Source: a virus. From it: a stretch of 64,000 nt of DNA. The notes under the pieces are model-generated. The model had not been told where the DNA came from and did no database searches. It saw only the letters and a list, made by a program, of their open reading frames with translations. Every line of letters starts with the position of its first letter. Within the stretch, counting starts at the first letter, position 1. Location of the stretch: the IMG/VR virus record IMGVR_UViG_3300028399_000005, positions 19,943 through 83,942 of that record; one strand, 5' to 3'. This document shows positions 72-57,450 of the stretch, piece after piece. Made by a program: the position numbers and the translations under genes.

Positions 72-124
72 ATGTCTATTATACTCATTGTAATATTTAA
101 ACATTGTGTAATATTACGAAGGGA

Positions 125-7705: not shown

Positions 7706-7789
7706 TAAAGACATGTTTTGATCCTTCTTTGGATGTATAATAGCGATAGTTTTTTATAAAGGTGGTTGGAATATGAGTATGAGAAGAAT

Positions 7790-7910
7790 GGGGCAGTAGC
7801 TCAGCCTGGGAGAGCGCGCGAGTAAAGCCCCCTTGCGCGCGCCACTCTGCGCACAGCAGATTGAGGGGGCCTCAGTGTAGTCGCGGGTTCAAATCCCGCC
7901 TGCTCCACCA
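7790..7910 (+). tRNA. tRNA-Ala-like RNA with expanded, non-canonical anticodon domain
   Basis: Acceptor GGGGCAG/CTGCTCC (G3-U70), A73, encoded CCA, D arm GCTC-AGCCTGGGA-GAGC, T arm GCGGG-TTCAAAT-CCCGC; upstream TTTATAAA and downstream T7; ~60 nt occupy the anticodon arm position. Confidence 0.85.
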
Positions 7911-8447
7911 CTTTTTTTGTGAAACAAGCCTAAACCCCGCCATCGTCTCGATGAGGTAACTTCTCGTCGGTTTTCTTTGTGCAGATAACAATATTTTCGC
8001 AATTCTTTCTCGGATTCTTGCACTGCCCGAATGACTACGAAAAAAATGGCACTACAAGTATCCAGAACATACTTCAGGATTTTTTCGATTTTTCGGGGCA
8101 AAAACCCGAACTTTTTCGTTGAAAAAATCAGTTTCCAAGACAAAAAGTATAATTTCACGATTAAGATTTTCAAAAAACTTAATGATTTACCTCAGTTTCC
8201 TATGAAAAGTATATCTTGAATACTCGAGCATATGTTTCATGGCGTGATACAAGCTATTGCAACAGAAATAATTATCGCCATTTCTTCTCGCATGTTTCAA
8301 GACCCGTGATACAAATATGAACTTAGAAAACAGTTCGGAACGTATCGAAAACAAAGAAGTCGAATAGCATGGCAGGATCCTACACAAGTTATGCATTTTT
8401 TCATATTCGCGCGCTCCGCACTTGTACTTACAAAATATTTCTTGTTA

Positions 8448-13054: not shown

Positions 13055-13132
13055 TATATCGTTCAACTATATAAAGAAAAAACTATATAATAGTAATGAT
13101 AAAATGGCGGGAGAGGAAAAAAGATAGCCGTG

Positions 13133-14452
13133 CTACAAGTAGCCGAGCTGTTTTTCGGCGGAGAACAAGCCGAACACCCGTTTTCTGTGTTTCTGGCGCA
13201 GACCGAGCATCTTCCGAGCGAAGTCTTGGAGCGAGAACCCAGCGTTGGCTTCCTTCTCCGCGTCGCCGAGAAAATCGAACAAGATCTTGCTAAACGGCGA
13301 CCCTTCCACGGCGAGAGCGAACGCTTTCCGTTGCTCATCGGCGGGGGCTTGGTTCTTCCGATTAACGCCTTCCTTGAACGCTTGCACCGCCTTCTCGTAC
13401 ATTACGCCGACAAGCGTCTCAACCTCGGCGTATCGTTGTTTCACGGCGTCGCCGAAGTTCGTGTGCACGATCTCGTAGAAATCTCTGCTCCCCTCGGCGA
13501 GGTCTCGCAGAATCGCCTCGAACATCTCGAACCCGCTCTGCTGGCGCACTCTCGAGAGCAAGAAGAACTCTTCCTTCTTGATTTTTAAACGGTTTCCGTT
13601 CGCGTCCCTCGCAACGAACCCCTCTTCGTCTTTCTCTAAGTCTCCGAGCAACTCGAGGGCGTAGTTGATGTTGTCGGCTGGTATGCGTCTCGGTCTCAGT
13701 GCGCCGATCATGCCAGCGACGCCGTCGAGTGTGTTTGCCTTCGTGATCTCCGCCCTGTAAGACTCGTTCTGGCCCGCAACGCGCATCGTGAGCAACGCCG
13801 TTTGGTGCTTGTCGTAGCGAGTAACGAGGCTGTGGCGACTCCAGTGCGGGAACATGACCTCGAAAGCGTAGGTGAATCGCTTGCTCAAGAGATCGTCGAG
13901 CTGGTCAAGGCTGACGTCGAGCGCCGTCAAGAAACCGTCGACGAAATCGATGTCGGCGGGGATCTTGTTCCGCGTGGCGAAAACCCAATCACCACAGTAG
14001 TAGAAAACGTTGAGTAATGTACCATCGAACTTCGTCTCGAGCCACGCCCGCTCCCAATCGAAGTCGACGTGGCGCCCTTCTTCCTCGTTGTAATTGAAGA
14101 ACCGAGGGAAGGCGAGGGCTACATAGTTGCCCTTGGCGTCCACGACGAGCCCGCGCATGACTTGGAACAGGGGTTCTCGGCGCACGAGCCTCGTCAGCCC
14201 AAGATTCGTGTTGAGTTTCATGGTCTGGCGGTAGTTGAGCAAGAACAAGTCCTTCTCGGGGTGTTGCCGAACGTTGATGCCAAAGATGAAAGCATCGAGA
14301 TAGTCCTCGGCGTAGTATCTGCGCCCCTCGTGGTAGTACATGTTGCCGTCCCGCTCGTCGAACACCGAGACCTTGCGCTTGGGGAAGGCTTTCTTCTCGA
14401 CGAGGCGGGCGAGCATCTCGTACTGCAACATTTCTTCGATCTTGTCTGTCAT
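13133..14452 (-). CDS. T4 Rnl1-like RNA ligase
   Basis: RGLVVD, AFPRFFNYNE, motif I KFDGT, FE, EGFV and RLKIK nucleotidyltransferase motifs. Confidence 0.88.
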   Translation of the reverse strand: MTDKIEEMLQYEMLARLVEKKAFPKRKVSVFDERDGNMYYHEGRRYYAEDYLDAFIFGINVRQHPEKDLFLLNYRQTMKLNTNLGLTRLVRREPLFQVMRGLVVDAKGNYVALAFPRFFNYNEEEGRHVDFDWERAWLETKFDGTLLNVFYYCGDWVFATRNKIPADIDFVDGFLTALDVSLDQLDDLLSKRFTYAFEVMFPHWSRHSLVTRYDKHQTALLTMRVAGQNESYRAEITKANTLDGVAGMIGALRPRRIPADNINYALELLGDLEKDEEGFVARDANGNRLKIKKEEFFLLSRVRQQSGFEMFEAILRDLAEGSRDFYEIVHTNFGDAVKQRYAEVETLVGVMYEKAVQAFKEGVNRKNQAPADEQRKAFALAVEGSPFSKILFDFLGDAEKEANAGFSLQDFARKMLGLRQKHRKRVFGLFSAEKQLGYL

Positions 14453-21920: not shown

Positions 21921-23900
21921 ATGAACGAACAAGACGAATCATTCGACCCAGAGAAAGTAGTAGCGAAAATTCTCGATCTTGCGCCGAAAACAGTCCTCAT
22001 CATGGGAAAGATCGGCGAGGACGAAAGAAAGGCGCTTGAGCGCCACATCAAGGAAGAATTCAAGAAGAGCGCCGAAAAGGAGAACGCCCACGCAGAACTA
22101 CTCGGTTTCGCGGACTACTACGGACGGCACCAAAAATACGAAAAAACGAAGAAAGCATTCGGCGACCGAATCGTCGAAGCCCTTGACAGAATCGCAACAA
22201 ACCAAATAGTCGACATTCTCGAAGTGTACCGCCCATTGTTGCTCTCGAAATATTACAACTTTACGCACTTGAACAAAAAAATAGACGGGAGGATCGCAGA
22301 CATTCTCGTCCCCACGAATTTCGAGCGAGTCTTTCTATCTACACTGTTCGTCGGCGAAATAACGCACTTGGCAACAGGCGCCGAGCTCGTGGGGAGTATT
22401 TCCCGTCCAGACCTCGAATTCAAGGCGAAAGAAAGCGATTTCGACGTTCGGGCGTTTTCCACGCACGAACTCACGTTCGCAACGGCGGTCGGTTTCACGC
22501 TCGAAAAAGTGTTCAAGCGTTTGCTCGCACGCGTTACGCAAACGGCGTATGAGAACGACGTGCCAAACGTCGTGGCGACCGTTGATCGGTTCGTAGCGTC
22601 GATTAAAGGACGAGAACTCTTGCTCGAGCTCGTCGAAGACCCTGGCTTCGACTTGCAAGTGCGGGAATGGGAGAGCCTCGGAATGCTCGATGAGTCAGTC
22701 ATCGATCCTCGAGAAGCCGTCCGCGAGCACGCCCTTCAAGAACCGACGGCGTCTTTCCGAACGTTGTTCTTGCCCTTCGACTCAAGGTTTTTCTCCCGCG
22801 AGAACAAACAACGCATGCTCGACCTCTTCGAGCATGATAAAGACGGTGCTGTCCTCGTCGGCGATAGCTACGTGGCCTTGCGCGTGCTTGCGGATGACGC
22901 TACCATTAACAAGAGCTTCGTCCAGACCATTTTCATCGATCCGCCGTTCAACAAGCCGAACGAGGCGAACTACAAGTATAGCGTCAAGATCGGCGACGAC
23001 GTCTGGATTGCCATGCTCCGCTCAAGGCTTCGGCTCGCAAGGGAGCTCTTGCACGAGACGGGCTCGATCTTCGTTCGATGCGACTATGAGGGCTCTCACT
23101 ACGTCCACCTTCTTCTCGACGAGATTTTCGGCAAGAAGAATTTCCGCAACGAAATCGTCGTCAAGCGCTCGAACCGCATCAAGAGCCCGACGTCTCGCTT
23201 CTTGTCGTGGCACGACGTTGTGTTCTTCTATGCGAAAAGAGCGGACAGAGCTTTTTTCAAAGAGCTTGTCGTCGATGAAGAGGCACGCAATGGCTGGCGG
23301 GGAATGGACATGCCAGGCGATTCTTACGAGGTCGTCCCCTCGGGGCTCGAGTCATTATTCGAGCCGTGGATGCTTGAGAAAGACTCTTATGAACAGACAG
23401 TTACTCGTGCGAGGCTGTTCTTCGGAAAACCTATCATGCCCCCGCCAGGGCGCAGATTCCCTTCCCAAGCAAAAATCAACGAAGAGATCGAGAAGGGCAA
23501 TATTCGCTTTTCTCGCTCGGGGCGCCCGTTGATCCGCAAGCGTGGCTACAAGGTGCTTACCGACGATTGGACGGACATTTTCGGCTACAAGAACCGCTTC
23601 GGGTTCACGACGGAGAACAGCGAGGAACTGCTACGACGCGTGATCATGGCAACTTCGAAGGAAGAGGACGTTGTGCTCGACTTTTTCGCTGGTAGCGGGA
23701 CGACCCTTGCCGTGGCGCACAAGCTCGGGCGAAAATGGGTCGGCGTAGAAATCAACGACCACGCTTTCGAGGTGCTCATCCCCCGCATGAAGAAAGTGCT
23801 GTTCTACGACGAAGGAGAGATCAGCTCGTTGAAAGAAGTCAGAGAAAAATACAACAAACGCCGAGCTGGCGGGGTCTTCTACTATTACTCTTATGAATAG
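21921..23900 (+). CDS. beta-class adenine DNA methyltransferase (Mod-like) with long N-terminal extension
   Basis: IFIDPPFN, KNFRNEIV, VLDFFAGSGTTLAVAHKLGRKWVGVE. Confidence 0.9.
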   Translation: MNEQDESFDPEKVVAKILDLAPKTVLIMGKIGEDERKALERHIKEEFKKSAEKENAHAELLGFADYYGRHQKYEKTKKAFGDRIVEALDRIATNQIVDILEVYRPLLLSKYYNFTHLNKKIDGRIADILVPTNFERVFLSTLFVGEITHLATGAELVGSISRPDLEFKAKESDFDVRAFSTHELTFATAVGFTLEKVFKRLLARVTQTAYENDVPNVVATVDRFVASIKGRELLLELVEDPGFDLQVREWESLGMLDESVIDPREAVREHALQEPTASFRTLFLPFDSRFFSRENKQRMLDLFEHDKDGAVLVGDSYVALRVLADDATINKSFVQTIFIDPPFNKPNEANYKYSVKIGDDVWIAMLRSRLRLARELLHETGSIFVRCDYEGSHYVHLLLDEIFGKKNFRNEIVVKRSNRIKSPTSRFLSWHDVVFFYAKRADRAFFKELVVDEEARNGWRGMDMPGDSYEVVPSGLESLFEPWMLEKDSYEQTVTRARLFFGKPIMPPPGRRFPSQAKINEEIEKGNIRFSRSGRPLIRKRGYKVLTDDWTDIFGYKNRFGFTTENSEELLRRVIMATSKEEDVVLDFFAGSGTTLAVAHKLGRKWVGVEINDHAFEVLIPRMKKVLFYDEGEISSLKEVREKYNKRRAGGVFYYYSYE

Positions 23901-24658
23901 CGCTTTTTGGGTTTGCCGACCACTCGGTCTCGCCATAAAAACAGCCCGCTCGTTTCCTTGCTCCCGAAGTGGTTGAACTCGCTGTCGAAAAACGTCGAGA
24001 GACGGGCGTTCTCCCATCCACCGTTGATTCTGGCGAGCTTTTCATAGACGGACGGCACGGGGACATCGTGCTCGACAATGTAGGCCCAGACGTCTTTCGC
24101 CGTCCACTCGGCGATCGGGAACGCCGTGTCCGTGAACCCGCTCTTTTTCGGTTCTATCCACGTTCCCGTGCGTCGCTTCGCCTCGGCGATCCGCGCTCGG
24201 CGCTTCTGGGACTCTTGGGATCGTAGACCGAGGAAACAGACGTCCCAGCCGTGGCGTTTCACGGCTTCCGACAAACGGGGGAAAAACGGCGATTTAGCGA
24301 TGTGTGATTCTCTTGCGGACGGTTTATCGCCCCCAGGCCTTTTCTCGTAACTATGGCGAGAAAAAGGGGCAATCTGGTCAATTCCTTGCAAGATCTCTTT
24401 CTCGATCCAACGGGGGATCAACCATTCGCCGTAGTCCCAGTGGCGAACCCAGACGTCCCTCTTGTACTGGACGACGAGATGGAGCATCGCCATGGAGTCC
24501 TTCCCGCCAGAGACGGCGACATAGGGGTTTTGATAGCTCGCCAAGACTCGGCGAATGAACGAGCGGGACGTGGCTACCTTGCGCCGATACTCCGACGTGT
24601 TCGTGTGTAGGAGAAAGCCAGCGATGACGGGTTTCGGCATGAATTTGGACGGTTTCAT
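23891..24658 (-). CDS. cysH: CysH/PAPS-reductase-like protein of type IV-B CRISPR-Cas
   Basis: VAVSGGKDS PP-loop, GLRSQES..R, PIAEWTAKDVWAYI; last gene of the csf operon. Confidence 0.88.
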   Translation of the reverse strand: MKPSKFMPKPVIAGFLLHTNTSEYRRKVATSRSFIRRVLASYQNPYVAVSGGKDSMAMLHLVVQYKRDVWVRHWDYGEWLIPRWIEKEILQGIDQIAPFSRHSYEKRPGGDKPSARESHIAKSPFFPRLSEAVKRHGWDVCFLGLRSQESQKRRARIAEAKRRTGTWIEPKKSGFTDTAFPIAEWTAKDVWAYIVEHDVPVPSVYEKLARINGGWENARLSTFFDSEFNHFGSKETSGLFLWRDRVVGKPKKRYS

Positions 24659-25449
24659 TGCGCAAGACCTATTTTTTGCTTTACTTGGGCGGAGAGCTCG
24701 CACTTTGCGCCGACGGGGACGCACGCGTCGATGTTTCGTCTGTCCCAGTACGGCGGTTTCCAGGCGAGGTAGGCGAAGTCGTCGTATTCGTCGCAGTAGC
24801 GCGTCGGGATGGGTCGTAGCGCTTCTTTTGTTTTCGGGTTCCAGAAGCTCGCCTTGTCGGGGTTTGGCTTGATCTCGACATGGCTGACTTCGCCGAAGCC
24901 GTAGGCGGTCTTTTTCCCGAGCCCCGTAACGTGTGCTATGAGCGATAGCAAGGAGTAGGGCTTCGCCTCGACGAAGACGTCGGCGTATCGGGCGGAAATG
25001 TAGGGGATTCTGATCGAGTAGTTCTTGAACGTCCCAGAGCCGAGGCTGATCTTGCTCTTCTTCCCGCCGATCTTGTGGGCGTCTGGCTCGTGGAAGCGTT
25101 TGTAAACATACTCGATGTTCGCCCGCTCCTCGACGTTGATGAGCTTCCCGTCGGCGTCCTTGAATAGGATGACAGAGGAGTGATAGAAGTACGTTTGGCG
25201 GATTGGCATGGGCAACGCTCGGACGCGCTTTCCGAGGGGGTCGTTCGAGGGGAGCATGTAGTAGTCTTGCCCGAGGGTGAGGCGGAGCAACATGTGCGCC
25301 ACGAGCCCGTCGAAGTTGATCCACGGGTGCGTGATCATGACGGGCGCTTTCAAGTGGAACCGCACGAGGACGTGCGCCCACTCTTCGCCTTTGAGCGTGG
25401 CGTAGTACTCCGTCGGCGTGTCCGCGAGCAAGTATTGCCGTAGGAACAT
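24655..25449 (-). CDS. csf3: type IV Cas5 (Csf3) RAMP
   Basis: INFDGLVAH, SGTFKNY, Gly-loop GLGKKTAYGFGEV, LRPIP, PPYW. Confidence 0.88.
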   Translation of the reverse strand: MFLRQYLLADTPTEYYATLKGEEWAHVLVRFHLKAPVMITHPWINFDGLVAHMLLRLTLGQDYYMLPSNDPLGKRVRALPMPIRQTYFYHSSVILFKDADGKLINVEERANIEYVYKRFHEPDAHKIGGKKSKISLGSGTFKNYSIRIPYISARYADVFVEAKPYSLLSLIAHVTGLGKKTAYGFGEVSHVEIKPNPDKASFWNPKTKEALRPIPTRYCDEYDDFAYLAWKPPYWDRRNIDACVPVGAKCELSAQVKQKIGLAQ

Positions 25450-25453
25450 AGCG

Positions 25454-26344
25454 TCATCCCTTCTTCTTGAACGATGAGAAATCGATTTTCTGGGCATCAA
25501 TCGCCTGCAAGAGCGCCAAGATGTCGTCTTGATTTTCTTCGACGAATCTTAGATACGTTTCTTCTTTTCCGAGTGCGCTCAAGGCAGTCTTGTCGTAGTC
25601 TGGACGCAACGCGCCGAGCCCGATGCTTGACTTCCCGCCGACGTAGCAATTGTTCTCCCAGATTCGGAACGCTCTTCGGAAGAACGCTTCTTCGACGGGC
25701 GTGGGGTCTTCGAGGACGAAAGCGTGCGTCAGCCTCGTGCCAGGGATCAAGACCTCGTATTCGACGAGCATTTGTTGTGCTTGTTCGCCTTCGTCCCGCT
25801 CGGCTCTGAGCTCGTCTTTGCGGGTCTGGTAAGTGTCGCTCATGAGCTCGTGGAAACTGAATTCGGCGCCCCTAACCGTTGAAGGGTCGAACGTGATCCC
25901 TTCGAGCTCCTTGCAGATCGGGAAAGCGTTCATGACCTTGAGCTTTCCCGTGAACGCTTGGTTGAGGAAGGACGAGCCGAAAACACTAATGGGGGGCAAG
26001 AGGTATCGGATGGTCTTCCTCGCTTCGAGGTTGAGCGTCCCGCTGTCCTTCGAGGACACTTTCTCGAGGTTCCCGCCCGAGTAGAAAAAGTGGTAGAGTC
26101 TGGCGGTCTCGAATCGGTGTCTTTGGCCCTCTCTGTAGCCCACGAGGTCGAGGAAGTCCTTCATGACGAGGCGTCGCAGGCGCCCTCTGATTGCATTTCC
26201 GCTGATGTAGGGCACTTCTTGGATCCCCTTGTTCGTGATCATTTCGATTCTTCGGAACCCGATCGTGGATCCCGTTTTTTCGTTCCCGCCGTGGTGGACG
26301 GGGGAAAGAGCTGTCAATATTCCGCTGATTTTAATTGTCTTCAT
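25454..26344 (-). CDS. csf2: type IV Cas7 (Csf2) backbone subunit
   Basis: TALSPVHHG, VPYISGNAIRGRLRR, YEVLIPGT, VGGKSSIGLG. Confidence 0.92.
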   Translation of the reverse strand: MKTIKISGILTALSPVHHGGNEKTGSTIGFRRIEMITNKGIQEVPYISGNAIRGRLRRLVMKDFLDLVGYREGQRHRFETARLYHFFYSGGNLEKVSSKDSGTLNLEARKTIRYLLPPISVFGSSFLNQAFTGKLKVMNAFPICKELEGITFDPSTVRGAEFSFHELMSDTYQTRKDELRAERDEGEQAQQMLVEYEVLIPGTRLTHAFVLEDPTPVEEAFFRRAFRIWENNCYVGGKSSIGLGALRPDYDKTALSALGKEETYLRFVEENQDDILALLQAIDAQKIDFSSFKKKG

Positions 26345-27879: not shown

Positions 27880-27928
27880 CAAGCAATCGACGATTTATCG
27901 AGAATCGCTGTATAATAGCCTTGCTCGC

Positions 27929-32489: not shown

Positions 32490-32581
32490 AAACGGGAAAA
32501 TAATATGTTTTTTTTAGTCGCTCGTTAGAACGATAATAAACGCTATTATAATTTCTGTTTAAAAACGCATTTTGGTGAGAA

Positions 32582-34885: not shown

Positions 34886-36343
34886 ATGACGAAAAATAAG
34901 AGCAAACGAAAAAAAGTAGTCAAAAACACGGAGACGCAAAACACTCGCACGTATTCGGACGTGCGCCGAATCAACGACGAGGAGATGCGGAAGATCCTCG
35001 AGGGCGTCGGGATGACGCCCCGCCACGAGGACGAGTGGTTGCGCGTGGCACGGCGCCACGAGATATTGAACGAGGGCGTAGAGCTTTTCATGAGTACTTC
35101 GGACATGAGTCCGAAGATCGCCGTTACGGCGACGCTCATGAGCCTCGCCTCGATGACCCGTCGAGAGCAACGCGTCGTCGTCATGCAAGGGTCGCCACAT
35201 CTCAACCTCTGGGCGACCGTGATCGGGATCTCGGGATGGGCTCGGAAGACGACCGCCGAGAAGATCTTGACGAAGCTCGTGAAAGAAGCGGAAGGGGAGT
35301 TTCTCCCCGCAAATTTCACGCCAGAAGCCATCATCTCGCACCTCTCGAAGAAGGCGCAAGGGCTTATCGTGAAAGACGAGATCTCGGGGCTCATAAAGGC
35401 GTTCCGCAAAGACCACAACGCGGATCTTCCCGAGGTGCTGAGCGAGATCTACGAGTGCAAGGATCGCGTCGAGCGCCACACGATCAGCCGAGGGCTCGAA
35501 GTCGTCGAGAACGCCTACGTGAACTGGTGGGGCGGGACAGCCGTGCACTACATCCGCCTGTTGCGGGACGATGACTGGAACCAAGGGTTCATGCATCGTT
35601 GGATCTATTGCCTCGACATCGACCTCATGCAGAAGAAAGTGCGCCCGCTGGTTTTCACGTCCGCCGAGCTCGACACCCGCATTCAAGACTTTGCGCAGAC
35701 CTTGAAGAAGGTGCGGGAAGTCCCCGTCGAGACGCTTATCCCCGCCGAGAAGACGAAGAAGTTCAAGACGCTCGAGCAAGAAAGCTTCGAAAAAGCGAAG
35801 CAGTACTATTCTCGGGACATTTTCGACATTGCGCACCCGTACTTTGCCAGGGTGCCGATCACGACGCTCAAGATAGCGGGGATCTTGCAAGTAGCAGACC
35901 TCGCTGGGAAGGGGAGCACGCTCGAACAGTTCGTCATCACGCCCGAGATCATGGACTTGGCGAGCGACCTCATGCGCTTGTACTTGCAAGAATTCGAAGC
36001 CCTCGTGGCGATCTTCAAGCGGACGGCGATCAGCGCACCGCCGACGACGGATCGGCGCAACCTCGGGTACTTCATCGAGACGCTCCGAAGCCTTGGGGGC
36101 GTTGCGAGGCAACAAGAGCTCCTCACGGCGCTCGGTTTTTCCTATGCGAAGTACCAGAAGCTCCTCGACACGCTCGTCGAGCGGGGGGACGTGGACGTCG
36201 GAAGGGTCGCAATTTCGGATCAGAAAGGAGCACCGCCCCGCCTCATCTGGCTCCGTTCCTATGCCTCGAACCTCGGCGACGCCGAGCAACTGTGGGTCGA
36301 GACGAAGGAGCTCCGAGACAAGGCATTGCGGGTCAAGAGTTGA
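34886..36343 (+). CDS. DUF3987-like P-loop protein (putative replicative helicase) with C-terminal wHTH
   Basis: HLNLWATVIGISGWARKTT, TPEA, KDEISG, QGFMHRW. Confidence 0.65.
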   Translation: MTKNKSKRKKVVKNTETQNTRTYSDVRRINDEEMRKILEGVGMTPRHEDEWLRVARRHEILNEGVELFMSTSDMSPKIAVTATLMSLASMTRREQRVVVMQGSPHLNLWATVIGISGWARKTTAEKILTKLVKEAEGEFLPANFTPEAIISHLSKKAQGLIVKDEISGLIKAFRKDHNADLPEVLSEIYECKDRVERHTISRGLEVVENAYVNWWGGTAVHYIRLLRDDDWNQGFMHRWIYCLDIDLMQKKVRPLVFTSAELDTRIQDFAQTLKKVREVPVETLIPAEKTKKFKTLEQESFEKAKQYYSRDIFDIAHPYFARVPITTLKIAGILQVADLAGKGSTLEQFVITPEIMDLASDLMRLYLQEFEALVAIFKRTAISAPPTTDRRNLGYFIETLRSLGGVARQQELLTALGFSYAKYQKLLDTLVERGDVDVGRVAISDQKGAPPRLIWLRSYASNLGDAEQLWVETKELRDKALRVKS

Positions 36344-36396
36344 TTCGTTACAACGCCCCGCTTTCTTTTTATATTATTGCTAATCGTTTTTCAATC

Positions 36397-37323
36397 ATGG
36401 AACACTTGGTTTTTCATGCGGAAGAAAAAGACGGAAACGTCCGTTACCGATCAACGAAACGAAACGACGTCGGGTCTCTCCGCACCACGGAAATGCGGAA
36501 CACAGTCCTCGTTGGCTCGTTCACCCAGACGGCGATTCCGATCGAGTGTCTTGAGCTAACGCCTCTTATTTCGGAACGATTGCATTATCACTTGGAATTG
36601 TGTAATTGCGAAGAGATGGCGCCAGAATATGGGCCACCTTATATTCTCGAACGAAACTACAGCGAGGGCTACGTCAAAGCAATGTGGCGGGACGATTTTT
36701 GCGTAAACTGCAAAGCGGTCTTTCATTCGTTGGAAGACATCAAAGACCCGCTCTATGGTAATCCTTCGTTGCTCTTCGTGATCATCTACTACGATCCCGA
36801 TTCGAAGAAGACCGAGCTCGTCATCACGCGCCAATATTTCCGTTATTTGGCGTTCGACATCATGCGAAGAAAGAACCTTGCGAGAGACCAGCTAAAAGTC
36901 GTCATGGCGACGAGATGGTTCTACGTCAAGAAACCGATCCTCGAACTTGAATTTCTCTTCGACGGCAACATTGAGAAAGACTTGTTCGACTACGGCGGAG
37001 ACGATATGTTCGATGACCTCACAAAGAAGAAGTTCGAGGAAAGCACGTTTTCCTACGTGCGCTACGTCGGAAAGCGACCGATGGGGCAAACCGAGACGTT
37101 GGAACTGTCATTCCAAGAGTTATTAGACGAAATAAAAAAGTGCGACCTTGGAACGATGTTTTATCACAGGGAGTTTTTCTTGCATTACGGCGGGCAAAAA
37201 ATCCCCGCAAGGAAAACATTTGCATACGTCCCCGTTTCTGCGTACTTGAACGCAAAAGAGCTCGAAGCGGGCTATCGCTTTACGAAAAGACCGCGTAGAG
37301 CAGTTTTGTCTGTCGTCCCTTGA
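36397..37323 (+). CDS. hypothetical protein
   Basis: Start MEHLVF after cgttacaacg operator (36346) and tttttata box. Confidence 0.7.
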   Translation: MEHLVFHAEEKDGNVRYRSTKRNDVGSLRTTEMRNTVLVGSFTQTAIPIECLELTPLISERLHYHLELCNCEEMAPEYGPPYILERNYSEGYVKAMWRDDFCVNCKAVFHSLEDIKDPLYGNPSLLFVIIYYDPDSKKTELVITRQYFRYLAFDIMRRKNLARDQLKVVMATRWFYVKKPILELEFLFDGNIEKDLFDYGGDDMFDDLTKKKFEESTFSYVRYVGKRPMGQTETLELSFQELLDEIKKCDLGTMFYHREFFLHYGGQKIPARKTFAYVPVSAYLNAKELEAGYRFTKRPRRAVLSVVP

Positions 37324-37383
37324 CTCCCTTGATGGTTAAAGTGAGTAAAAAGTCGGTTTAGTAAAAGCAAATAATTAAAAAAG

Positions 37384-37508
37384 TGGCGGTGCTCGCGAGC
37401 CTCGCACTCGCTCTCCTTTTCGGGCAGAGCCACCTTCTGCCCTATCCGCTTCCCCCGCGTGGTGGCTTGGGCGGGTTTCACGGAAAGGAGCGGGCTATTC
37501 CCAGCACC
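37384..37508 (-). ncRNA. 125-nt tRNA-like RNA with CCA end and kissing-loop domain
   Basis: 5' GGUGCU pairs with 3' AGCACC-G-CCA; T-arm-like GCGAG-UGCGAGG-CUCGC; BRE/TATA cgaaaaacatataa ~24 nt upstream; CTTTTTT downstream. Confidence 0.75.
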
Positions 37509-37647
37509 ATGTTTATGTATTATCCCCCTCTATTATATGTTTTTCGGTATTTAAAAATTTTATGCTCCATTTGTCTCATTATAACGCTGAGCAATCATTT
37601 AATATGGCGGTACCGAGGCAAGAGACAAACGATTCGAGGTTCTGTGA

Positions 37648-37812
37648 ATGAAAACAACAGTCATAAAAGAAATCCCAGACCCTTGCCCGATTACGGGAAT
37701 AAACTGCTTTACGAAGAGAATTGCAAGCTCAGCGGACATATACATCGACAGGGGCTGTCCAGTTCTGGCTGACGACAAAAACTGTGATTACGTCATCCGA
37801 GAAGACAAATAG
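37648..37812 (+). CDS. small 4-Cys protein (54 aa), not in ORF track
   Basis: MKTTVIKEIPDPCPITGINC...GCPVLADDKNCDYVIREDK; GAGGT SD. Confidence 0.5.
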   Translation: MKTTVIKEIPDPCPITGINCFTKRIASSADIYIDRGCPVLADDKNCDYVIREDK

Positions 37813-37913
37813 TTCCCCATAGTGTTTTCCTTTTTGTTATAACAAAAACCGTTTCTCGTTATAACGGGAAATAATCATTTAATAACTCGTATTCAACATT
37901 TGGATTGATCCAC

Positions 37914-57135: not shown

Positions 57136-57450
57136 CTAATCGAAAAAGTCTTCTGCTCCCTCGGTGCTCCTCTTGCGTTTTTTCCCATTCTTGTTCCCGA
57201 GGTGGTACTTCGTAGAGCCCGCAATGAAGGGTTGAGCGTCCCATTCGTTGCGTTCTCTTCGTAATGAGATGACGATTTGTTGCGTGATCGGGTCGAACTC
57301 GAGCTCGACGCTTTCTGGGCGTCCCATTTTTTCGAGCCATGCCCTGGGCAACGTTACGCCATTCACATTCCCAATAGCTATAATCTTTCGCACAACCACA
57401 GTATTCCTTAGTTGCGCTAATTTCTTAAACTTCTGTATCTCGCTGTCCAT
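57136..57450 (-). CDS. AbrB/MazE-like DNA-binding protein
   Basis: RKIIAIGNVNGVTLPRAWLEKMG..VELEF. Confidence 0.75.
   Translation of the reverse strand: MDSEIQKFKKLAQLRNTVVVRKIIAIGNVNGVTLPRAWLEKMGRPESVELEFDPITQQIVISLRRERNEWDAQPFIAGSTKYHLGNKNGKKRKRSTEGAEDFFD

Follow-up and report, generated by a model that had tools for sequence, protein, structure and literature searches.

A candidate gene for a 125-nt RNA with a tRNA-like top half in a virus from hydrothermal vents

Does a tailed virus from hydrothermal vents carry a gene for an RNA that resembles transfer RNA (tRNA) only in its top half? The question is raised by positions 37384-37508, minus strand, of a 64-kb window (the whole stretch of DNA analysed, 64,000 nt) of the 83,942-nt virus record IMGVR_UViG_3300028399_000005; all coordinates are window positions unless marked otherwise. 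A first, sequence-only reading had proposed here a 125-nt tRNA mimic with two kissing hairpin loops in place of the anticodon. The explanation that we favour, with our confidence about evenly balanced, is a free-standing viral gene for a non-decoding RNA of ~125 nt that would mimic only the top half of tRNA. It is read as a non-decoding mimic because the top half is kept and the decoding half is replaced. We infer its expression, its true ends, its tertiary pairing and its partner; judged by its letters, it is a plausible and interesting lone example, still unproven.

Fold and gene signals of the candidate RNA

The locus was folded with ViennaRNA, and the results showed a minimum free energy (MFE) of -58.4 kcal/mol for a cloverleaf-like four-way junction with an inner three-way junction. 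The helices had pair probabilities of 0.59-0.998. The RNA forms an island of 65-68% G+C, while its flanks have 27-32% G+C. Its parts are as follows, with RNA position i at window position 37509-i.

37384..37508, minus: candidate 125-nt RNA, predicted four-way junction with a tRNA-like top half (sequence and fold)
37503..37508, minus: acceptor-like helix, 5' strand GGUGCU, 6 bp, pairing with 37388-37393 (probability 0.90-1.00)
37393-37388, minus: acceptor 3' strand AGCACC, followed by single-stranded G-CCA at 37387-37384 (sequence and fold)
37492..37502, minus: mini D-like hairpin GGG-AAUAG-CCC, 3 bp with a 5-nt loop, abutting the acceptor strand (probability 0.96)
37413..37490, minus: 78-nt domain replacing the anticodon arm, its stem closing the three-way junction (sequence and fold)
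37490-37484 with 37419-37413, minus: closing stem CUCCUU(U)/(A)AAGGAG, 6-7 bp
37445..37484, minus: hairpin A, UCCGU/GCGGA, internal loop GAAA/GGAA, CCCGC/GCGGG (sequence and fold)
37459-37470, minus: 12-nt loop of hairpin A, CCAAGCCACCAC, within CCCGC-CCAAGCCACCAC-GCGGG (37475-37454)
37422..37442, minus: hairpin B, GGGCAGA/UCUGCCC, with 7-nt loop AGGUGGC (37429-37435), complementary to GCCACC of loop A
37395..37411, minus: T-like arm GCGAG-UGCGAGG-CUCGC, 5 bp with a 7-nt loop (probability 0.98)

When the letters were checked, all helices, arms and loops named in the first reading were found at their places on the minus strand. The computed structure differs from that reading in two respects. 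U25 pairs with A64 and not with A90, in an extra 5-bp helix of hairpin A (UCCGU/GCGGA) that lies below the purine-rich 4x4 internal loop GAAA/GGAA, and hairpin B has a second register with a smaller loop (see below). Hairpin A thus drawn has 14 stacked layers, double the 7 bp of hairpin B.

We then list the gene signals, with G1 as the first nucleotide of the RNA.

37537-37530, minus: TATA-box-like octamer TATAATAG, at -29 to -22 of G1, with purine-rich CGAAAAACA upstream
76-83 (minus), 7736-7743 (plus), 13086-13093 (plus), 27911-27918 (plus), 32543-32550 (minus) and 37530-37537 (minus): the copies of octamer TATAATAG
37377..37383, minus: C and T6 immediately behind CCA, resembling an oligo-T terminator (sequence)

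The octamer TATAATAG occurred six times in the window versus 0.34 expected, and a count of six was reached in 0 of 100 shuffles. All six copies lie within A+T-rich spacers, one of them upstream of a tRNA gene at 7790-7910, plus strand (hereafter the 7790 RNA). This octamer is probably the TATA-box core of the virus, and a spacing of -29 to -22 fits the archaeal distance from TATA box to start. With the octamer at this spacing and enriched in the window, the promoter claimed in the first reading was borne out. Several copies have no obvious open reading frame (ORF) downstream.

At the other end of the gene, CCACTTTTT was found at the 3' ends of both the candidate and the 7790 RNA (7908-7916), which confirmed the CCA-CTTTTTT ending that the two had been said to share. 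It has five matches in the window versus 0.55 expected; the remaining three fall within coding regions and do not mark the end of an RNA. For a plus-strand ORF of 129 aa, antisense to the RNA, a protein search gave no relatives and the called proteins contain no entry, which was counted toward a non-coding status of the locus. With its promoter-like and terminator-like signals, strand asymmetry and G+C island, the locus looks like a free-standing RNA gene.

Likeness to tRNA and complementarity of the two loops

Like canonical tRNA (RF00005), the candidate has a four-way junction, a 5'/3' helix with an N-CCA tail, and an arm of 5 bp whose loop has 7 nt, and its CCA-C-T6 ending is that of the virus's own tRNA. 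Compared with the T-loop consensus, the T-like arm retains the equivalents of G53, U54, C56, G57 (R57), A58 and C61, with G instead of U55. The acceptor-like helix ends in a single-stranded discriminator and CCA, and is one pair short of the canonical seven. As for the decoding half, the only 7-nt loops are AGGUGGC and UGCGAGG, neither of which has a U at its second position in the anticodon-arm location, and a 5-bp anticodon stem with a 7-nt U33 loop and an anticodon is absent from the sequence and fold of the candidate. The RNA cannot decode, because it has no 7-nt anticodon loop. The tRNA scaffold of the first reading was retained for a tRNA-like acceptor/CCA end and T arm in an RNA lacking an anticodon loop, and was narrowed in that the likeness is confined to the top half.

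Searches of known families agreed with the proposal that the RNA belongs to none of them. Rfam gave no match at gathering thresholds and none at E<=10 in the 501-nt region 37200-37700, and this included tmRNA, YrlA/Y RNA and phi29-type prohead RNA (pRNA). With RF00005 at E<=10 over the whole 84-kb genome, only the 7790 RNA was matched (42.2 bits; gathering threshold 29 bits). ARAGORN with introns allowed reported no tRNA or tmRNA at the locus, and on the isolated RNA it reported nothing even at -ps70. One of 558 calls at -ps75 overlapped the locus (genome positions 57223-57400); it was not co-terminal with the RNA. The calls at lowered thresholds numbered in the hundreds and were junk.

The RNA might instead be a decoding tRNA with a large or unconventional intron, for example of ~61 nt (RNA positions 29-89), which we consider very unlikely. 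By eye, such removal leaves a minimal body with CUCCU-UUCCGAA-AGGAG, which resembles the anticodon arm of an Arg(CCG) tRNA, but the product would be without D arm or variable region and cut at 36/37. Introns at non-canonical positions are carried by Thermoproteota-type archaea. According to PMC10848311, tailed viruses bearing type IV-B loci have been assigned to Bathyarchaeia. However, a script search for the strict bulge-helix-bulge motif (hBHBh'; two 3-nt bulges 4 bp apart at the borders of exon and intron) found none in the candidate, and none in the 7790 RNA either; such a search says little on relaxed motifs, and a relaxed search returned noise only. The would-be 3' splice site also lies behind a whole hairpin and not in a 3-nt bulge. 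When all single deletions of 5-89 nt were made, ARAGORN called 0 tRNAs versus 563 for the 7790 control, a test that is weak for this RNA because ARAGORN relies on a canonical T loop, which is absent here. Together with the empty result of the Rfam tRNA model at E<=10, these negatives upheld, within the limits of both tests, the view that this is not a standard tRNA with one intron.

The virus's other tRNA gene bears on the same question, since 59 nt replace the 15-nt anticodon arm in the 7790 RNA, which favours the intron. The 7790 RNA has G3:U70, A73 and an encoded CCA, and no single deletion yielded a UGC anticodon in ARAGORN. It may be a real intron-bearing tRNA. The first reading had described the two RNAs as a pair of tRNA mimics. 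This idea was kept in part only, since the 7790 RNA passes the Rfam tRNA model.

The nearest systems in print are the bacteriophage T4 species 1 and 2 RNAs (rnaC 139 nt, rnaD 119 nt; NC_000866 70908-71171), which are also viral, small, stable and of similar size. In T4 rnaC, according to annotation and fold, a 5'/3' helix closes the 3'-terminal T arm CCGGG-UUCGAAU-CCCGG, and extra hairpins take the place of the tRNA body. The T4 RNAs differ from the candidate in lying within a tRNA cluster of a bacterial virus, and the T loop of rnaC is canonical. A covariance model built from the single candidate sequence and its structure had 0 matches at E<=10 in the T4 rnaC/rnaD region.

Other comparators share single aspects of the design. 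YrlA and other tRNA-like Y RNAs (RF02553) fuse a tRNA-like module to a foreign structured module and are non-decoding. The candidate differs from them in having no Rfam match, no accompanying Ro60/TROVE gene and a CCA end that is gene-encoded and free. No Ro60/TROVE gene was found in the 84-kb genome, while the control search matched in 2 of 14 genomes, and a YrlA-type reading is therefore without support. In the Alu domain of the signal recognition particle and in the tRNA elbow, neighbouring junction hairpins pair their loops over 2-3 bp in conserved families, whereas the candidate is predicted to allow 6-7 loop pairs. Further comparators are the tRNA-like candidates in an IMG/VR survey (PMC10690425). 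What sets the candidate apart, as far as the letters tell, is that an archaeal virus from vents combines a gene-encoded CCA end with a three-way junction whose two loops complement each other.

The complementarity of these two loops was claimed in the first reading and proved exact: GCCACC (37461-37466) and GGUGGC (37429-37434) match over 6 nt, or 7 nt counting A42-U81, with a computed duplex energy of -11.9 kcal/mol between loop A and loop B. It was also rare in shuffles. With loops extended by 2 nt, 3 of 3000 shuffles had a loop complement of 7 nt or more and 29 had one of 6 nt or more; with loops extended by 3 nt, the counts were 7 and 58 of 3000. A search elsewhere in the virus for a second complement of the loops or of the RNA 3' end (allowing <=4 mismatches over 18 nt, or <=1 over 12 nt) found none, and a primer or antisense role is therefore without support.

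By sequence, the loops may pair either within one molecule or between molecules. The loops of pRNA pair between molecules over ~4 nt. pRNA is known only from small phi29-like phages, which argues against the idea, given here a slim chance, that the candidate forms dimers or rings like those of phi29 pRNA on the portal, with the tRNA-like end serving as a handle for a protein. Both are viral non-coding RNAs (ncRNAs), pRNA being ~120 nt, with a three-way junction and two mutually complementary loops, and PMC5066667 describes self-assembly of pRNA driven by Watson-Crick pairing of the CE and D loops between molecules. Hairpin A, as folded, is twice the length of hairpin B, so a contact within one molecule would need a bend, although by a rough triangle estimate such a contact is sterically possible. 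phi29 pRNA differs in having no CCA tail or T arm, the candidate has no Rfam match to it, and the candidate gene is located in a replication/recombination module 25 kb from the portal gene.

Fold stability, homologues and points against the reading

Several findings weigh against a tRNA-like RNA gene, and they are gathered here. In geometry, the RNA departs from canonical tRNA beyond its missing anticodon loop and 6-bp acceptor: G115 is bulged between T stem and acceptor, the variable region is down to a single nt, the D hairpin abuts the acceptor without the 8-9 linker, the D arm has only 3 bp and a loop AAUAG without G18G19, and G replaces U55. Because of these departures, acceptance of the RNA by any given tRNA enzyme is not to be assumed. 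In the foreign domain, an equally good register of hairpin B (pair 73-81, probability 0.59) cuts its loop to GUGG and buries part of the kissing sequence. A competing partner for loop B (GGUGG, 37429-37435) is CCGCC near the 3' end of the same RNA (37385-37389; -9.0 kcal/mol), so that the proposed contact of loops A and B is not unique. This second pairing might mask the CCA end as a switch, or it might be coincidental.

The stability of the fold gave divided results. Against its own dinucleotide shuffles the RNA had z = -2.76, with 1 of 200 as stable, and in a larger set z = -2.55, with 1.4% of 3000 as stable. The opposite strand had z = -1.22 (26 of 200), and the fold is strand-asymmetric. 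Against GC-matched 125-nt windows of the genome, however, z was -1.68, and 5.3% of 3354 were as stable. The Rfam-positive 7790 tRNA stood out still less in this comparison (z = -1.21, 10.5%). When MFE was scanned along the whole genome, windows offset 5-10 nt from the locus ranked 1091 and 1235 of 11,176. On thermodynamics alone, the case is thus neither made nor broken.

Such ordinary stability against the genome background, at a locus that does not stand out in the scan, speaks for another explanation, in which the variable spacer between the genes holds a decayed tRNA, a fold that arose by chance or an element acting as DNA, without RNA function. We rate this alternative as rather unlikely. 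The neighbouring genes evolve fast and have no relatives, in keeping with it. On the other hand, a promoter-like octamer, a CCA-C-T6 ending, a closed helix of the 5' and 3' ends and a loop of T-loop type all occur together with correct spacing, which counts against a chance fold, as do the strand asymmetry and the rarity of the loop complement in shuffles.

The search for homologues also bears on this alternative. No alignable homologue was found in any collection searched, and the RNA is to that extent an orphan, as a relic or chance fold would be. With a single sequence, the undescribed viral ncRNA class proposed in the first reading was not established. The covariance model scored its own sequence at 161.4 bits. 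It was run on 76 records, mostly fragments, from IMG/VR loci picked by a portal profile as distant relatives (<=39% identity), and matched none of them (0 of 50 and 0 of 26). IMG/VR scans with an exact 24-mer of the RNA and with the loop pattern gave no homologue. Scans of IMG/VR with the 574-aa ORF, portal, RAMP, 329-aa and 485-aa proteins gave none that was usable, and a scan of JGI metagenomes with the 347-aa neighbour protein gave none.

Loop-pattern matches in two JGI and two GTDB stretches were dismissed as chance. The covariance model was empty in two of them, and in the other two it aligned 30 patterned positions only, at 7.5 bits and with unpaired stems. By blastn, phage records gave 5 spurious 32-nt matches (E=0.3) and plasmid records no match; by tblastn against phage records, portal matches reached <=28.8% and a 350-aa ORF had none. 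The RAMP protein had one match in a Skermania phage, at 27%. Within the virus, the only other match of the covariance model was at 35362-35478 (plus strand; 15.8 bits, E=0.25), inside the primase-like gene, and is probably noise.

The RNA is not described in the text examined of PMC9894754, PMC12934983, PMC10848311, PMC5066667 and PMC10690425; the supplementary tables of the last, with 10,006 candidate viral RNAs from IMG/VR, might include it or a relative. The word tRNA has 0 occurrences in PMC9894754, and the terms looked for have none in PMC12934983.

A related virus was present in an independent second vent metagenome. It is ~92% identical over 37231-37745 and keeps the stretch with no indel inside the RNA, which argues against a relic or chance fold. 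The only indel reported over 37231-37745 is a 9-nt insertion placed at 37377, by our reading of the alignment the downstream end of the T run. The second metagenome shares 0.18 of the sampled 31-mers, a hint of a conserved block somewhere in 37200-37700. In the relative, 36944-37197 (252 to 228 nt) and 37745-37844 (98 to 106 nt) are replaced by unlike sequence, and the ~92%-identical stretch that holds the RNA lies between the two replaced stretches.

Proposed role and gene neighbourhood

For the favoured RNA gene, we propose that its own promoter would drive a single transcript that begins at or close to G1 and is processed at its 3' side down to CCA. With its acceptor helix, T arm and CCA, the RNA might then be bound by factors that grip the top half of tRNA. 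RNase P, the CCA-adding enzyme, the elongation factor and several synthetases all hold tRNA by this top half, which is also the target of some tRNA-directed toxins. Candidate binders would include RNase P and the CCA-adding enzyme, possibly EF1A or a synthetase, and host defence nucleases or toxins aimed at tRNA ends. Pairing between the loops, aided by a bend at the GAAA/GGAA internal loop, would compact the foreign domain, and the RNA would act as a stable mimic or decoy and not as an adaptor. 

A bolder form of this proposal appears distinctly unlikely to us. It would make the RNA the first anticodon-less tRNA mimic expressed by an archaeal virus with a self-pairing three-way-junction module, which shows its CCA/acceptor/T-arm end to host factors as a nuclease or toxin sponge or for non-ribosomal charging, and whose loops lock the body or join pRNA-like dimers or rings.

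Bacterial and eukaryotic viruses also produce tRNA-shaped RNAs without a decoding role, for example T4 species 1 and 2, RNAs of the YrlA type and the vtRNAs of herpesviruses, most of them without a known job. If the favoured reading is true, this theme would reach the tailed viruses of vent archaea, with a distinct design. The RNA would then offer a 125-nt object for asking which proteins of the host recognise tRNA by its top half alone, whether viral mimics protect against tRNA-directed defences, and whether loops pair within or between RNAs.

Its gene content marks the virus as tailed and of archaeal type, with genes for a portal-MuF fusion, a family B DNA polymerase, and tail tube and baseplate proteins. 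Window DNA was found in two hydrothermal vent metagenomes, one of which is probably its source, with no RNA run among those listed. The portal is at most 42% identical (best relatives 28-42%) to any protein outside its own cluster, and the virus is therefore without close sequenced kin in the collections searched. The genes around the RNA are as follows.

34886-36343, plus: primase-like protein, 485 aa (PHROGs)
36397-37323, plus: orphan 308-aa protein, convergent with the RNA gene; no relative among 5.8 billion clustered proteins
37648-37812, plus: Cys-rich 54-aa ORF, diverging from the RNA promoter region; the source's own gene call, no family match
Further neighbour: orphan protein of 347 aa
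38974-39963: Sak4-like ATPase

The primase-like and Sak4-like neighbours place the RNA gene within a replication/recombination module. A listed 574-aa ORF at 35599-37323 (plus strand) was rejected as an artefact of G+C-rich overlap, the real genes being those of 485 aa and 308 aa. A protein search with this mis-called ORF gave no relatives, and one with the 308-aa orphan returned the self-match only; an atlas search with the same orphan gave scores <0.9, to be taken as leads only.

A further alternative makes the RNA a dedicated partner or substrate of one of the virus's own proteins, namely an array-less type IV-B Csf complex, an Rnl1-like ligase or a TGT-like enzyme. We give it hardly any weight, and the links to Csf2, EF1A or the ligase hinted at in the first reading are guesses. 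A PAPS-reductase-domain (CysH-like) protein of 496 aa adjoins a RAMP (Csf2-like) protein of 296 aa at 23891-26344 (minus strand), and the pair is consistent with an array-less type IV-B locus, such as is reported for the Bathyarchaeia 'Fuxiviridae' viruses (PMC10848311). Type IV-B complexes were found on non-CRISPR RNAs (PMC7937560). The candidate has no repeat-like or guide-like feature, which speaks against this alternative, as does the missing second complement of its 3' end or loops in the virus. A TGT-family protein (28.6 bits) is encoded 3.7 kb from the RNA gene, whereas the csf genes are 11 kb and the ligase 23 kb away, and the shared genome is the sole tie. The ligase is a weak candidate itself, a T4 Rnl1-type RNA ligase domain at 13133-14452 (minus strand) that scored 26.8 bits versus a Pfam cut-off of 28.3. 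A possible tRNA-repair-type ligase shares the genome with two unusual tRNA-like genes.

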